Shown piece after piece: positions 3,200 through 61,245 of a stretch of DNA of 64,000 nt. Under the pieces are notes generated by a model, which had not been told where the DNA came from, ran no database searches, and worked only from the letters and a program-made list of their open reading frames with translations. Positions within the stretch are counted from its first letter, which is position 1. Each line of letters opens with the position of its first letter. The position numbers and the translations under genes were made by a program. This DNA is from an uncultured Muribaculaceae bacterium (GTDB lineage: Bacteria > Cyanobacteriota > Vampirovibrionia > Gastranaerophilales > Gastranaerophilaceae). The stretch is taken from positions 23,235 to 87,234 of the forward strand of contig CAZVBZ010000004.1 of NCBI GenBank assembly GCA_964626145.1. The letters run 5' to 3'.

Positions 3200-4510
3200 A
3201 TGTACACACTAGCATTACAGCAGAATAAAAATTACACCAAACTGATACTTTATTCGGTTTATGCAATGCTTTTAACCTTTATGGTGGCGCCGCCTAGGTA
3301 TATTCTTTATCAGGACAGCCTCCTCGCCATGGCAACCCCTGTACAATATGGACATGTATCTACAGATGTATTTACAACCAAAGCCGGCGAGGAGATGTAT
3401 AATCAAAATTTAATGCTTGCGGAAAAAGAGAGATGGAACAACTCAACAAAAACAAGATATAAAAATGGACTAATTTTAACAGTTAAACCAGGCGTAAAAC
3501 ATATAAAACTCACGCGACGCTCTCAAGCAGGCAATGTGAAAATAAACGTAGTAGAGATGAATAAAAAAATCAATCCAAACCTTGAAGTTGCCCCCGTTTT
3601 GGCTTCTGATACTTTATCAAGGAAAGCAAATATAAAAACACTCGCAGCAAAAGGAAACGCGATTGCCGCAATTAATGCAACCTATTTCAAACCACAAACC
3701 GGCGTTCCTCTCGGCACTTTAATGATAGACAAAAAAATTTATACAGGTCCGATTTACAACAGAGTAGCACTAGGAATAAAAAATGACAGCTATATAATGG
3801 ACAAATACCAACTTAACGCGGTGTTAAAATACAAAAAAATGTCAACAAAAATCGATAACATAAATCAGCCGCGAATGCTTTCAACATATTTACTTGTTTA
3901 CACAAAAGACTGGGGACAAAATAGCCCAACCGCCCCAAATTATGGCATAAATATAGCCATTGAGGATGGTAAAATTACAAAAGTTTCAAACGGTTCTTTA
4001 ACTATACCCCAAAACGGATTTGTTGTATCCGGACCCAAATCAAAGTTAGAACCGTTTTTTAATGCACAAATGCACGATGAAAAACAACCTTTTCTAGCCA
4101 ATCTTACAAAAGGTCGAAAAATTGAACTTGAAATAAAACAAAACGAAAACTGGGAAGATGTAAACCACATTGTGAGCGGCGGACCCTTCCTTGTAAAAGA
4201 TGGAAATATTTACGTTGACGTAAAAGAAGAAAAACTTCTTTCCATTACCGGACGAAACCCACGTACTGCAATAGGATACACAAAAGACAACGAATTTATA
4301 ATGATGACAATTGACGGACGAGAACAAACATCGGTCGGCATGACTCTCACAGAAACCGCGCGCCTAATGAAAGAGTTTGGCTGCGTCTGGGCGATGAACC
4401 TTGATGGCGGCGGTTCAAGCGTAATGCTGGTAAGTAACAAAATTGTAAATAACCCGAGCATTCAAGGCGGAATAGCAATTTCCAACGCATTAATTATTCG
4501 CGAAAGTTAA
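3200..4510 (+). CDS. phosphodiester glycosidase family protein (NAGPA-like)
   Basis: C-terminal NLDGGGSS motif typical of this family; N-terminal TM/signal segment; RBS aggag 6 nt upstream. Confidence 0.6.
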   Translation: MYTLALQQNKNYTKLILYSVYAMLLTFMVAPPRYILYQDSLLAMATPVQYGHVSTDVFTTKAGEEMYNQNLMLAEKERWNNSTKTRYKNGLILTVKPGVKHIKLTRRSQAGNVKINVVEMNKKINPNLEVAPVLASDTLSRKANIKTLAAKGNAIAAINATYFKPQTGVPLGTLMIDKKIYTGPIYNRVALGIKNDSYIMDKYQLNAVLKYKKMSTKIDNINQPRMLSTYLLVYTKDWGQNSPTAPNYGINIAIEDGKITKVSNGSLTIPQNGFVVSGPKSKLEPFFNAQMHDEKQPFLANLTKGRKIELEIKQNENWEDVNHIVSGGPFLVKDGNIYVDVKEEKLLSITGRNPRTAIGYTKDNEFIMMTIDGREQTSVGMTLTETARLMKEFGCVWAMNLDGGGSSVMLVSNKIVNNPSIQGGIAISNALIIRES

Positions 4511-4604: not shown

Positions 4605-4633
4605 TTGAAATCCCTATCAAATTTTGATAAAAT
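4605..4633 (+). promoter_or_regulatory. near-consensus sigma70-type promoter (TTGAAA-N17-TAAAAT) of pilin-like copy 1
   Basis: -35 TTGAAA at 4605-4610, 17-nt spacer, -10 TAAAAT at 4628-4633. The same architecture is upstream of copy 2. Confidence 0.55.
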
Positions 4634-4674
4634 GTAATAGTTAAAAGTACAAATGCAATAAAAAAGGATAGAAA

Positions 4675-5572
4675 ATGAAGTACGATAATTTTACTTTTAA
4701 AGACGCAAAAAACGTTTTTAGCTCGCTTTTAATGCCCCCCCCCCCCTACTGCCACAAGGGTTTCCAGGGTTTTAACTAAAAGCAAAAAACATGGTTGGAC
4801 TCTTGCAGAAACGTTAATTACTTTAACAATTATTGGAGTAATAGCTGCAATGACAGTGCCCAATTTAATGAGCAATTTTAGAAAATCGCAAACCGAGACA
4901 GGAATAAGGGTTGCTTATAAAATTTTAAACGATGCACTCAAAATGCCAATTGCTACAGAAGAAGCGCCTGATATGCCTACAATGATAATAGATTCACAAA
5001 CAGCCCCCGATATAACCGACGAATGGGACTCAATAATTAACCACTTTGCAACAAACTATCTCGTTCCATATTTAAAAGTTGCAAAGACATGTAAATCAGG
5101 AATAAGCACTGAAGATTGTGGTATACTGTATCCCAGCAAGCAAATTGATGGAAGCCCAACGCCACCAGATATGATGATGTATAATCCAAAGGACAAATAC
5201 AGAATTCAGCTCACAAATGGTATGCAAATTGGGGTTGGGAAGTACACGCCACAGGAGGGTGGTGACGGTTTTACTTTTTTAGTAGACATTAATGGTAAAA
5301 GCGGTCCAAATAGGCTAGCACACGACCAATTTTATTTTGCAATATCCGCAGCGACATGTAACACTACTAATCAATATTATTGCGACAAACATAATTTCAT
5401 ACAGGGGGGATTGCCTTATAGGAGTAGTACATCTAATAATATGTTTGATACCAGCATAAATCGGTGCATTAATAATATTGAATTCTGGGGTACTAAAGGG
5501 GCAGATTGTGCCGCGGTACTGCAACAAAACGGCTGGAAGATACCGGATAATTATCCGGTGAAAAAGTGGTAA
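4675..5572 (+). CDS. type IV pilin-like protein copy 1 (prepilin-type N-terminal cleavage/methylation domain); leader ORF and pilin body are out of frame by +1 at a poly-C tract
   Basis: RBS aaagga plus ATG at 4675 opens a leader (MKYDNFTFKDAKNVFSSLLMPPPP) that runs into C12 and stops at 4777-4779. The +1 frame continues ...TATRVSRVLTKSKKHG|WTLAETLITLTIIGVIAAMTVPNL..., a classic G|xxxxE prepilin site with a hydrophobic helix. The table ORF 4850..5572 begins inside that helix and so cannot be the true start. C-terminal GADCAAVLQQNGWKIPDNYPVKKW is shared with the paralogs. Confidence 0.75.
4735..4746 (+). repeat. homopolymeric C12 tract directly after ATG 4732
   Basis: Read directly from the sequence; 11 C (or 14) would place ATG 4675/4732 in frame with the prepilin body. 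Confidence 0.9.
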
Positions 5573-18948: not shown

Positions 18949-20034
18949 TTAAGCTTCTATTTGTGCAAGTTTTTCAAGTTTAAGCTTTTGGTCATGTTCG
19001 ACTAAAAGTCCTATAAGGTCGTCTAATTCTCCGTCAATTACTGTCCAAACGTTTAAGTTTTGTCCAATTCTATGGTCTGTAAGACGTCCTTGCGGGAAAT
19101 TATATGTTCTTATGCGTTCTGAACGGTCACCAGTACCAACTTGTGAGCGCCTAAGGTCAGTAATTTCTTGCATTTGTTTTTGAACTTCTAAATCATATAA
19201 TTTTGCTTTAAGAATTTGAAGTGCACGTTCTTTGTTTTGAAGTTGCGAGCGTTCTTCAGTACAAAAAACCATTAATCCGGTTGGTTTGTGAACAACACGA
19301 ACAGCTGTTTCAACTTTGTTAACGTTTTGTCCCCCAGCCCCTCCCGAACGGCATGTTGAAATTTCTAAATCAACTGGATTTATATCTATTTCAACATCAT
19401 CAACTTCGGGCATAACGGCAACAGTTGCGGTTGACGTATGAACTCGTCCTTGGCTTTCTGTCTCGGGAACACGTTGAACACGGTGGACGCCGGATTCATA
19501 TTTAAGCTGGGAGTAAATGCTATCACCTTTCATAGAAATAACAACTTCTGAAACGCCGCCAGCCTCACAATCATTTATTGATAAAATTTGAGTTGACCAA
19601 CCTTTTTTGTCCGCATAACGCATGTACATTCTCATTAAATCGCCAGCAAATATGTTTGCTTCATCTCCGCCAGCTCCGCCACGAATTTCAAGCATAATAT
19701 CTTTGTCATCCATTGGGTCACGAGGAAGGAGAAGAACTTTCATTCTTTCTGAGTATTCTTCGATTTTTTTCTCGTTTTCTTCAATTTCTGCTTTCAAAAA
19801 ACCTTTCATTTCTTCATCTTTTTCTGTTTTCAAAAGTTCTTGAGCGTCTTTTATGGCTTCGTCAGCATTTTTAAAAGCGTGGTAAACTTCTACCGTTTCT
19901 TCCATAGCTTTTCTTTGTTTTGAAAGGTCTCGAAATTTATTGTAATCTTGTGCTGTAGCAGGGTCTGACAAAATTAACCCAAGTTCATTATATTTTGTTT
20001 CTATTTGTAATATTTTATCAAGCATGTCTTTCAT
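18949..20034 (-). CDS. prfA: peptide chain release factor 1
   Basis: RF1 family with GGQ motif ([11 protein letters not shown]). Start trimmed to the Met with RBS aaagga (MKDMLDKIL...), because the table start at 20112 would overlap thyX by 65 nt. Confidence 0.9.
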
Positions 20035-20047
20035 TGATTTTTTCCTT

Positions 20048-20746
20048 TTAAATATCTCTTGTAGCCATTCTACCACAAGATTTGTCTTCGTCACAGAAAC
20101 CGAGTCTTTCACATTTTGGAACGAGATATGGTTTTAACCAAGGTTCTTGTTCTGTTAGGGCATTACACATTAACCGAACAAGAAGTCTTATTTCATCTTG
20201 CGCTCGTGTGCAAAGTCTTATATTTGCGAGGTGAATCATTTCTCTTAGATTTAGGCTAGCAACCATAGAGGAAGCAGCCGCGTTTGGAAGAATAAATCTT
20301 GCATCTTCTGCGGGAATTCCGTTTTCTGTCATTTCTGTGTAAAAATCGGCAACTTTTTTCATAAATTCATCGTATTTTTCTTTTAATTCAGAATTTTTTT
20401 GAATAGTTGGAGGAGTAAGATAATCAAATTGTCCTTTTTCTTTAACATATCTTTGAGATTTTTGAGAAAAAGACATGTGGCGGTGTCTAACAAGCTGGTG
20501 AGTACAAGCGCGTGACACATTTGAAATAGCAAAAGATACCTGAATATGTTCTATTGTTGAATAATGTCCAGATGAAATAACCCTTGATATGAGCTTTAAC
20601 ATTTTTTCTTCATCTTCGGCTTTATCATAAATATTAATCGGCGAATCGGCGCTGTAACAAGTGCGGCATGCCGTGTAAATTGTGCGTAGCATGTTGTCCG
20701 GTTTAGATATTAATTGTACTACTGGTTTATTTGAAAATTCAGACAT
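20048..20746 (-). CDS. thyX: FAD-dependent thymidylate synthase
   Basis: ThyX signature [14 protein letters not shown]. Confidence 0.9.
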
Positions 20747-33193: not shown

Positions 33194-33207
33194 CTTACTA
33201 AAGATTA

Positions 33208-33242
33208 AAACGCCGGAAACTTAATTGTTTCCGGCGTTTTTT
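33208..33242. terminator. bidirectional rho-independent terminator
   Basis: aaacgccggaaac/gtttccggcgttt 13-bp hairpin plus T run; between convergent rpsT and pilin-like copy 2. Confidence 0.75.
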
Positions 33243-33245
33243 GTA

Positions 33246-34122
33246 TTAGAATTTCTTTACCGGATAGTCGTCTGGTATCTTCCAGCCGTTTTGCTGCAGT
33301 ACCGCGGCACAACCCGCCCCGCTGTTGGTATTATTGCAGGAATTTATACTAGCATCAAAAGCGTTCTCAGAAGTCCTGCAGCGATAAGAAAGTCCTCCTT
33401 GTATAAAATTATGTTTAGAATCGTAATATGGATCGTTCATCCACGAGGGCTTATCTGCTGATATTACAAAATAAAATTGGTCATACGCCAGCCTATTTGG
33501 ACCACTTTTACCATTAATGTCTACTAAAAATGAAAATCCGTCATCAGCTCCATTTGTATACTTACCAACCCCAATTTCCATACCATTTGTGAGTTGAATT
33601 CTGTATTTTTGATAAGGGTTATACATTCCCATATTGGGGATGCGAGTTCCATCAATTGTCTTGCTCGGATAGAGTATTCCGCAGGTAGTATCCTTTATTC
33701 CATATTCACATGTTTTTGCAACTTTTAAATACGGAACAAGATAATTTGTTGCAAAATGGTTAATTATTGAGCCAAAATCGTCGGTTAAATCAGGTGCGGT
33801 GTTTGAAGCTATTATCATTGCAGACATATTAGGCGCTTTGCCTGTTACAACTGGCATCATCAGTGCATCGTTTAAAATTTTATAAGCAACCCTTATTCCT
33901 GTCTCGGTTTGCGATTTTCTAAAATTGCTCATTAAATTGGGCACTGTCATTGCAGCTATTACTCCAATAATTGTTAAAGTAATTAACGTTTCTGCAAGAG
34001 TCCAACCATGTTTTTTGCTTTTAGTTAAAACCCTGGAAACCCTTGTGGCAGTAGGGGGGGTGCATTAAAAGCGAGCTAAAAACGTTTTTTACGTCTTTAA
34101 AAGTAAATTTTTTTGTATGCAT
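33246..34122 (-). CDS. type IV pilin-like protein copy 2; leader and pilin body are out of frame by +1 at a poly-C tract (poly-G on the + strand)
   Basis: On the minus strand: RBS gaggg, ATG at 34122, leader MHTKKFTFKDVKNVFSSLLMHPP, a C7 tract, stop after 34 codons. The +1 frame reads ...TATRVSRVLTKSKKHG|WTLAETLITLTIIGVIAAMTVPNL... About 70% protein identity to copy 1, with identical N- and C-terminal ends. Confidence 0.75.
34054..34060 (-). repeat. homopolymeric G7 (= C7 on the coding strand) tract in the copy 2 leader
   Basis: Read directly from the sequence; 6 or 9 C would restore the frame. Confidence 0.9.
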
Positions 34123-34164: not shown

Positions 34165-34193
34165 ATTTTATCAAAAAACGATAAGAATTTCAA
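34165..34193 (-). promoter_or_regulatory. near-consensus sigma70-type promoter (TTGAAA-N17-TAAAAT) of pilin-like copy 2
   Basis: The reverse complement reads cTTGAAAttcttatcgttttttgaTAAAATt, the same architecture as 4605-4633. Confidence 0.55.
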
Positions 34194-61161: not shown

Positions 61162-61245
61162 TGCCGAAGGCCGGACTCGAACCGGCACGTGGTTGCCCAC
61201 ACAAGATTTTGAGTCTAGCACGTCTACCAATTTCATCACTTCGGC
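61162..61245 (-). tRNA. tRNA-Leu(CAA), type II (long variable arm); CCA not encoded
   Basis: Reverse complement gives GCCGAAGTGATGAAATTGGTAGACGTGCTAGACTCAAAATCTTGTGTGGGCAACCACGTGCCGGTTCGAGTCCGGCCTTCGGCA, near-identical in fold to canonical bacterial tRNA-Leu(CAA). 7/7 acceptor stem, perfect T arm, one U-U mismatch in the anticodon stem. Confidence 0.85.

Follow-up and report, generated by a model that had tools for sequence, protein, structure and literature searches.

A poly-C tract in the leader of a type IV pilin-like gene as a probable phase switch in an uncultured gut bacterium of the Gastranaerophilales

How can a pilin be produced when no start codon lies in its reading frame? This question is raised by a 64,000-nucleotide stretch of contig CAZVBZ010000004.1 (here called the window) from an uncultured bacterium of the Gastranaerophilales, in which the start codon of a type IV pilin-like gene annotated as DUF6613 is separated from the pilin body by a run of 12 cytosines (C12) that leaves the two in different frames. 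Members of the Gastranaerophilales, a group related to Cyanobacteria, are widespread in the gut and uncultured, and their interactions with hosts, phages or other microbes are almost undescribed. A sequence-only reading of the window had left two explanations side by side, namely phase variation through changes in tract length and a +1 ribosomal frameshift on the CCC-C proline codons. The analysis described here makes it probable that C12 acts as a contingency switch of the slipped-strand (simple-sequence-repeat) kind, which would turn the gene on and off from within its cleaved leader.

The frame junction in copy 1 and its paralogue

The gene in question, copy 1, is encoded on the plus strand. 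Its upstream region contains a sigma-70-like promoter site at 4605..4633 (TTGAAA, a 17-nt spacer and TAAAAT, with TG ahead of the -10 hexamer as in an extended -10 element; 10/12 matches), and a ribosome binding site (RBS), AAGGA at 4664..4668, can be read directly 6 nt upstream of the ATG at 4675-4677. As sequenced, this ATG opens a leader open reading frame (ORF) of 34 codons (4675..4779) with the product MKYDNFTFKDAKNVFSSLLMPPPPYCHKGFQGFN, which includes a second in-frame ATG at 4732-4734, runs through the C12 homopolymer at 4735..4746 and terminates at the TAA at 4777-4779. The RBS, both ATG codons, the tract and the stop were all found where the sequence-only reading had placed them.

The pilin itself is encoded in the +1 frame relative to ATG 4675. 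This frame (4733..5572, plus strand) contains 279 open codons followed by a stop at 5570-5572 and reads ...PPPPTATRVSRVLTKSKKHG/WTLAETLITLTIIGVIAAMTVPNL..., where the slash marks the prepilin cleavage site KKHG/WTLAE. The linker PPPPTATRVSRVLTKSKKHG ends with the G(-1) codon at 4793-4795, and the mature pilin, which carries the DUF6613 annotation, occupies 4796-5569 (258 aa). The earliest ATG, GTG or TTG in this frame is ATG 4850, which corresponds to mature residue 19 within the hydrophobic helix, in agreement with the proposal that the prepilin N-terminus and body lie in a frame devoid of its own start. An alternative pilin-frame start ahead of ATG 4850 was rejected, as none is present there and ATG 4791 belongs to a very short ORF in the third frame. 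In the public annotation, gene P0001 (240 aa, 4850-5572) begins at this internal Met, which lies in the transmembrane helix; the length of 240 aa given earlier for the pilin body is that of the truncated ORF.

The C12 tract is the sole G or C run of at least 8 nt in the window, which has a G+C content of 33%. Five overlapping C8 matches were counted in the window, compared with a mean of 0.16 in dinucleotide-preserving shuffles, and none of the 100 shuffles reached five; the tract is far beyond chance. A tract of C11, C14 or C8 would join the leader to the pilin. When one C was removed in silico, the resulting leader could be aligned with the in-frame leaders of the homologues P0006, P0007 and P0010, in line with the earlier suggestion that the loss of one C would fuse leader and pilin. 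Searches with the leader alone yielded little: the protein search by word index gave no candidate, and the exhaustive protein search with the 34-aa OFF peptide had P0052, an unrelated repeat protein, as its sole match. An RNA element or frameshift stimulator at the tract was also considered and rejected, because an Rfam scan of the tract region and of the whole window found nothing relevant, just a tRNA-Leu at 61162-61245, and the RNA folding energy of 4640-4810 was no better than that of shuffles (z = +0.86).

The label 'copy 1' in the sequence-only reading implied a second copy, and a paralogue was found on the minus strand at 33246-34122. Its promoter-like site at 34165..34193 (TTGAAA at 34193-34188, 17 nt, TAAAAT at 34170-34165) is conserved with that of copy 1, and the TTGAAA...TGATAAAAT block has been kept upstream of both copies while the flanking sequence diverged. 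GAGGG serves as RBS at the position equivalent to AAGGA of copy 1. The frame-0 leader ORF of copy 2 (34021..34122, minus strand) encodes the OFF product MHTKKFTFKDVKNVFSSLLMHPPYCHKGFQGFN followed by a stop, and its tract is an A-interrupted CAC7 at 34054..34062 (G7 on the plus strand at 34054-34060). This tract is exactly 3 nt shorter than C12, so that the pilin frame (33246..34064; 272 codons and a stop, G(-1) codon 34007-34005, mature pilin of 252 aa) is again at a +1 offset. The public call for copy 2, P0003 (33246-33950), likewise starts at an internal Met in the transmembrane helix. Directly after the stop of copy 2, a hairpin CGCCGGAAAC-AATTAA-GTTTCCGGCG followed by TTTT can be read on the minus strand at 33207..33236, which is likely an intrinsic terminator.

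A detailed comparison of the two paralogues showed that they are identical over about 250 nt (4690-4938 on the plus strand and 34107-33862 on the minus strand) except for one substitution and the tract. This block extends from leader codon 6 to mature codon 47, the tract is its only indel, and both of its flanks have diverged. The start ATG is at the same codon position in both copies, whereas the first five codons differ (MHTKK and MKYDN). Likewise, a Met five codons ahead of FTFKD is conserved in copy 1, copy 2, P0006 and P0007, with those five codons differing. The 5' end of both copies has presumably been homogenised by gene conversion, and the tract is the most changeable element of the homogenised block. 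In the diverged part of the body, dS is 0.93 and dN/dS is 0.21, showing that both pilin bodies are under purifying selection. As a separate observation, P0002, a homologue from another assembly, is 100% identical to copy 2 across its first 160 residues and then divergent, with its last 20 residues nearer to copy 1 (19/20). This mosaic sequence hints at the exchange of C-terminal cassettes between paralogues or strains.

The type IV pilin-like identity of both copies was assessed with sequence profiles and a structural model. With the NCBIfam profile TIGR02532 (prepilin-type cleavage/methylation), copies 1 and 2 scored 18.0 and 17.9 and passed the cut-off of 16.3, while the Pfam N_methyl score of 18.9 was under its cut-off of 21.2. 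Position +1 of the cleavage motif is W in both copies and F in relatives, and E+5 is present. The PF20318 (DUF6613) profile scored the window copies at 18.0 and 17.7, below the cut-off of 24.3, and the precomputed database annotation gives PF20318 for P0001, P0003 and nearly all homologues; the C-terminal motif NGWKIPD.YPVKK is also common to the window copies and their relatives. The AF2 model (pLDDT 84.7) has an N-terminal helix of 51 residues followed by a four-stranded beta-sheet, a predicted architecture that appears pilin-like, and Foldseek found no structural match to it.

Frame states and tract lengths in related loci

Would a fused prepilin of this type be found in other genomes? A protein search with the frame-corrected query identified P0006 (MQYQNFTFKDAKNVFSSLLIAPPPTATRVSRFLTKNKKHG/WTLAE...) and P0007, both of which have the same long leader in frame (...NFTFKDAKNVFSSLLIAPPPTATRVSRFLTK.KKHG/), and P0010 and P0014 begin in frame with MPPPPT...KHG/. 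For these in-frame relatives, the tract lengths were deduced from protein only. P0002 was called from an internal MTVPNL, as the window genes are, and is presumably out of frame too, while P0004 and P0005, the closest homologues by body sequence, have ordinary short leaders and no tract. At the DNA level, three out-of-frame examples of this leader type were found, namely copy 1 (C12), copy 2 (CAC7) and a related locus, L010 (C8). Going by these sequences, a prepilin fused to the long leader is genuinely produced in some genomes, and this leader type occurs in both frame states. All 373 genomic relatives (373/373) come from Gastranaerophilales / Melainabacteria gut assemblies, among which the window's own lineage is not included; scans of genomes and metagenome contigs found no close relative of this lineage, the best matches being 42% and 39% identical. 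The distribution of the family and the G+C content also suggest that the window stems from this order.

To place the two window copies in the context of their family, 161 related loci and the window were surveyed, comprising 718 kb around DUF6613 pilin genes from Gastranaerophilales gut assemblies. The 300 nt ahead of prepilin cleavage sites account for about 4% of the sequence and contain 85 of the 100 G or C runs of at least 8 nt; most of the other 15 are pilin-linked as well (longer linkers, locus ends, a D+5 variant). A tract is present at about half of approximately 180 cleavage sites. The common layout consists of a strong RBS-ATG, 5-20 codons (about 10) that are often basic (MKKLRIA..., MQKTSIARIS...), a G or C tract of 8-13 nt, a linker and the cleavage site [G/A]/FTLAE. 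The mode of tract length is 10-11, poly-G tracts outnumber poly-C tracts by 58 to 20, the linker ranges from 0 to about 130 codons, and the RBS and ATG are usually situated 16-60 nt upstream of the tract.

This architecture was found in about 80 distinct loci, whose frame states are mixed. The stretch between tract and cleavage site is open in the pilin frame in 69/73 loci, compared with 7/73 and 3/73 for the other two frames; this identifies the linker as coding sequence and the tract as the junction between the frames. In 68 distinct loci without a start of their own, the frame of the RBS-ATG relative to the pilin was in frame in 7, offset by 1 in 32 and offset by 2 in 21. Within a single metagenome-assembled genome (MAG; CALUTI01), the tract-bearing paralogue L052 is in frame and two others, L008 and L026, are not. 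The uniform out-of-frame arrangement that would have spoken for a fixed feature was thus not seen among related genomes, where offsets 0, 1 and 2 are all present and tract length is variable.

Direct evidence for length variation in DNA was provided by two human gut contigs, ORUV01001938 (L118) and ORNP01005079 (L120), which have 0 mismatches in 3334 nt and differ solely in the tract, G8 versus G11. Both are in frame, since the 3-nt change keeps the ON state. A second pair, L098 and L121, is 97% identical; the former carries G11 and is out of frame, the latter carries G10 and is in frame. Together with the junction between a start-bearing and a startless frame, the in-frame relatives and the mixed frames of about 80 loci, this difference between otherwise identical contigs gives good support to the phase-variation half of the sequence-only reading.

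Some related loci show further arrangements around the tract. In about 17 of them (including L015 at 2342-2513 and 3330-3501, L061 at 2350-2507 and L043), the tract ORF is followed by stops and then by a separate RBS-ATG with a short prepilin leader; consequently, the tract does not act by simple fusion there. In L015, a hairpin CCGTG...CACGG is located between the tract ORF and the downstream start.

Slipped-strand switching and its alternatives

According to the slipped-strand reading, transcription would start from the conserved promoter and translation from ATG 4675. With C11, C14 or C8, the ribosome would pass the Pro run and the linker to reach KKHG/WTLAE, and the pilin would be ON. Prepilin peptidase would subsequently cut away the entire leader including the tract, and the mature pilin would be displayed on the surface. 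Because the tract sits in the removed leader, its length would never alter the mature pilin, and 3-nt changes would be silent. With C12 as sequenced, translation would end at 4777 without producing pilin, which corresponds to OFF. Replication slippage would alter the tract length at high frequency, whereby the paralogues would switch independently, and both window copies would be in the OFF phase. Copy 2, with its short A-interrupted tract, would presumably be less mutable and slower to switch. In line with a contingency locus, copy 1 possesses a repeat of hypermutable length between the start and the functional part of the ORF, ON and OFF alleles both occur in nature, and among relatives the length varies between otherwise identical sequences.

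Several observations weigh against this reading. The 64-kb window yielded neither a prepilin peptidase nor pilus machinery. The C7 of copy 2, which is OFF, is of marginal length and expected to switch slowly, and tract polymorphism is known from relatives, not from the window locus itself. Furthermore, copy 1, copy 2 and L010 are all at the +1 offset, and in-frame alleles are under-represented in the survey (10/69 against an expected one third, p = 3e-4), a count that depends on a heuristic RBS-ATG assignment. This deficit requires an added assumption, which could be selection for OFF or the expression of one paralogue at a time; alternatively, it could reflect recoding. Selection for OFF (e.g. 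by antibody or a pilus-specific phage) or single-paralogue expression explains the deficit as well as recoding does.

Recoding as the main route of expression survives best among the alternatives, although we regard it as unlikely. In this case, the out-of-frame state would be the ground state, and +1 slippage of tRNA-Pro on CCC-C or slippage of RNA polymerase would yield a low, stochastic amount of prepilin. Extended to the whole family, the out-of-frame arrangement would be a selected default, with polymerase slippage and/or frameshifting on GGG-G and CCC-C giving each paralogue a fixed low stochastic output; such recoding-based bet-hedging in place of a DNA switch seems to us similarly improbable. 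The common +1 offset of copy 1, copy 2 and L010, despite their different tracts, speaks for recoding, as does the deficit of in-frame alleles, which amount to about 12-14% across the family and are significantly below one third. Slippage toward +1 is favoured at CCC-C, and transcriptional slippage is promoted by runs of at least 9 nt, a length that, of the two window copies, only copy 1 reaches. However, in-frame homologues with the same leader exist, so that the out-of-frame state is not obligatory, and the length of the tract does vary in DNA.

The dedicated +1 ribosomal frameshift on CCC-C that had been suggested for this locus is not favoured. As at tRNA-Pro CCC-C and prfB-type +1 sites, the sequence is slippery toward +1 and the shift needed is +1. 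Unlike at prfB-type sites, neither a stop nor a known hungry codon follows the tract, the next 0-frame codon being UAC, and there is no obviously slow codon, no upstream Shine-Dalgarno-like stimulator and no RNA structure (no Rfam match; the folding z value given above). In contrast to programmed +1 sites, which have a single fixed and conserved offset, in-frame homologues exist and offsets 1 and 2 both occur in a family that is mostly poly-G, which a single ribosomal mechanism cannot cover. Leaky recoding, either transcriptional or by low-level tRNA-Pro slippage, could nevertheless make the OFF state leaky on top of a DNA switch. A release-factor gene at 18949-20112 was considered as a prfB with the classic +1 site and was rejected as a parallel, since it is unshifted and starts with MKDMLDK....

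A homopolymer miscall, in which case the true tract of copy 1 would be C11 or C14 and the sequenced population would simply carry an intact gene, is less probable still. The length of a C12 tract is difficult to determine from short reads, and the contig is probably metagenome-assembled. Three related tracts are situated at contig ends (L005 1-53, L084 3212-3223, L147 2254-2265), and one of them, a C53 run 17 nt ahead of the cleavage site in L005, has an implausible length and could represent either an artefact or an extreme expansion. Tracts at contig ends fit heterogeneity or sequencing difficulty breaking the assemblies at these sites. However, copy 2 is equally out of frame, and because its C7 is reliably sequenced, its OFF state is not a homopolymer miscall; the error could apply to copy 1 only. 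Moreover, P0002 from another assembly is also called from an internal Met, and random errors would leave about one third of the alleles in frame instead of 14%. Even if copy 1 had been misread, the tract would stay a hypermutable frame junction.

It is very doubtful that the two copies are decaying pseudogenes, i.e. dead paralogues that were frameshifted at a fragile tract. Both are out of frame, and the short interrupted tract of copy 2 could be a locked-off remnant. On the other hand, the bodies are intact (258 and 252 codons) and, as described above, evolve under a low dN/dS; both copies have retained their promoter, RBS and start codon. The 5' 250 nt have been kept identical, implying ongoing gene conversion, and the same layout is present in about 80 loci. 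The last alternative, in which the short frame-0 ORF would itself be the product, a leader peptide whose PPPP or GGG stalling motif would regulate a downstream, independently started pilin, finds a parallel in the 17 related loci with their own RBS and start between tract and cleavage site, but it is scarcely credible for the window, where the pilin frame lacks ATG, GTG and TTG from the tract to mature residue 19, given a linker open in the pilin frame in nearly all loci and interchangeable G and C tracts, which point to a DNA-level rather than a peptide-level feature.

Parallels in known systems and further observations

The poly-G tract of Neisseria pilC and the CTCTT repeats of opa lie in the signal-peptide coding region and mediate translational slipped-strand phase variation. 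As in pilC and opa, the repeat of the DUF6613 genes is positioned between the start codon and a mature surface or pilus protein, its length would shift the frame between ON and OFF, and it would be removed with the leader. As with opa, a multi-gene family is involved, whose members would switch independently and of which most copies are OFF. In contrast to pilC and opa, the proposed switch resides in a pilin-like structural subunit whose class III (prepilin) leader is unusually long, at about 40 aa, consists of G or C homopolymers, and is found in genes assigned to DUF6613 in an uncultured gut Melainabacteria host.

Campylobacter jejuni and Helicobacter pylori share with the present loci a low G+C content and long G/C runs of 8-13 nt that are nearly all found in surface-structure genes. 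However, their loci mostly concern glycosyltransferases, flagellar modification, restriction-modification and outer-membrane proteins, and the single expanded pilin family with a stereotyped leader position is seen here and not in these two species. In Bordetella pertussis, a poly-C run sets the phase of the fimbrial subunit genes fim2 and fim3, as proposed here; that tract is located in the promoter and alters transcription, whereas the one described here is downstream of the RBS-ATG and inside the reading frame.

Searches of full-text literature on Melainabacteria, Gastranaerophilales or Vampirovibrionia in combination with phase variation, homopolymer or pilin yielded no description of such a system. 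While the mechanism itself is already known, the lineage, the gene family, the placement within the extended class III leader of a pilin-like subunit and the scale are new. If the slipped-strand reading is true, these commensals rely on contingency loci, a strategy for which Neisseria, Haemophilus, Campylobacter and Helicobacter are the best-known examples. Homopolymer switches appear to be present at around half of the DUF6613 genes sampled and to involve nearly every long G/C run near them, and their likely purpose would be pilus variation under antibody, phage or niche pressure. In practice, tract-bearing pilins are cut short or overlooked by gene callers and contigs break at the tracts, leading to systematically mis-annotated pilin repertoires in MAGs. 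Internal-Met calls such as P0001 and P0003 probably extend to many tract-bearing pilins in these assemblies.

Regarding the genomic setting, the neighbours of both pilin copies are housekeeping genes, and pilA-D and pilT have been reported in a Gastranaerophilus genome (PMC5877343).

Two additional features of the related loci were observed. In L079 (3390-3450), L042, L056, L031, L013 and L072, a decoy cleavage motif FTLAEGATHVA / GATRVA is situated 20-25 codons before the real one, and its GATHVA part is encoded by the perfect palindrome GCTACGCACGTAGC. Finally, L071 (2471-2515) has two poly-C tracts, one of C10 and one of C11, which lie 24 nt apart within one short ORF (MNKALSFAPPPTKKKQKVFPPPRQ...), and would constitute a two-tract switch.

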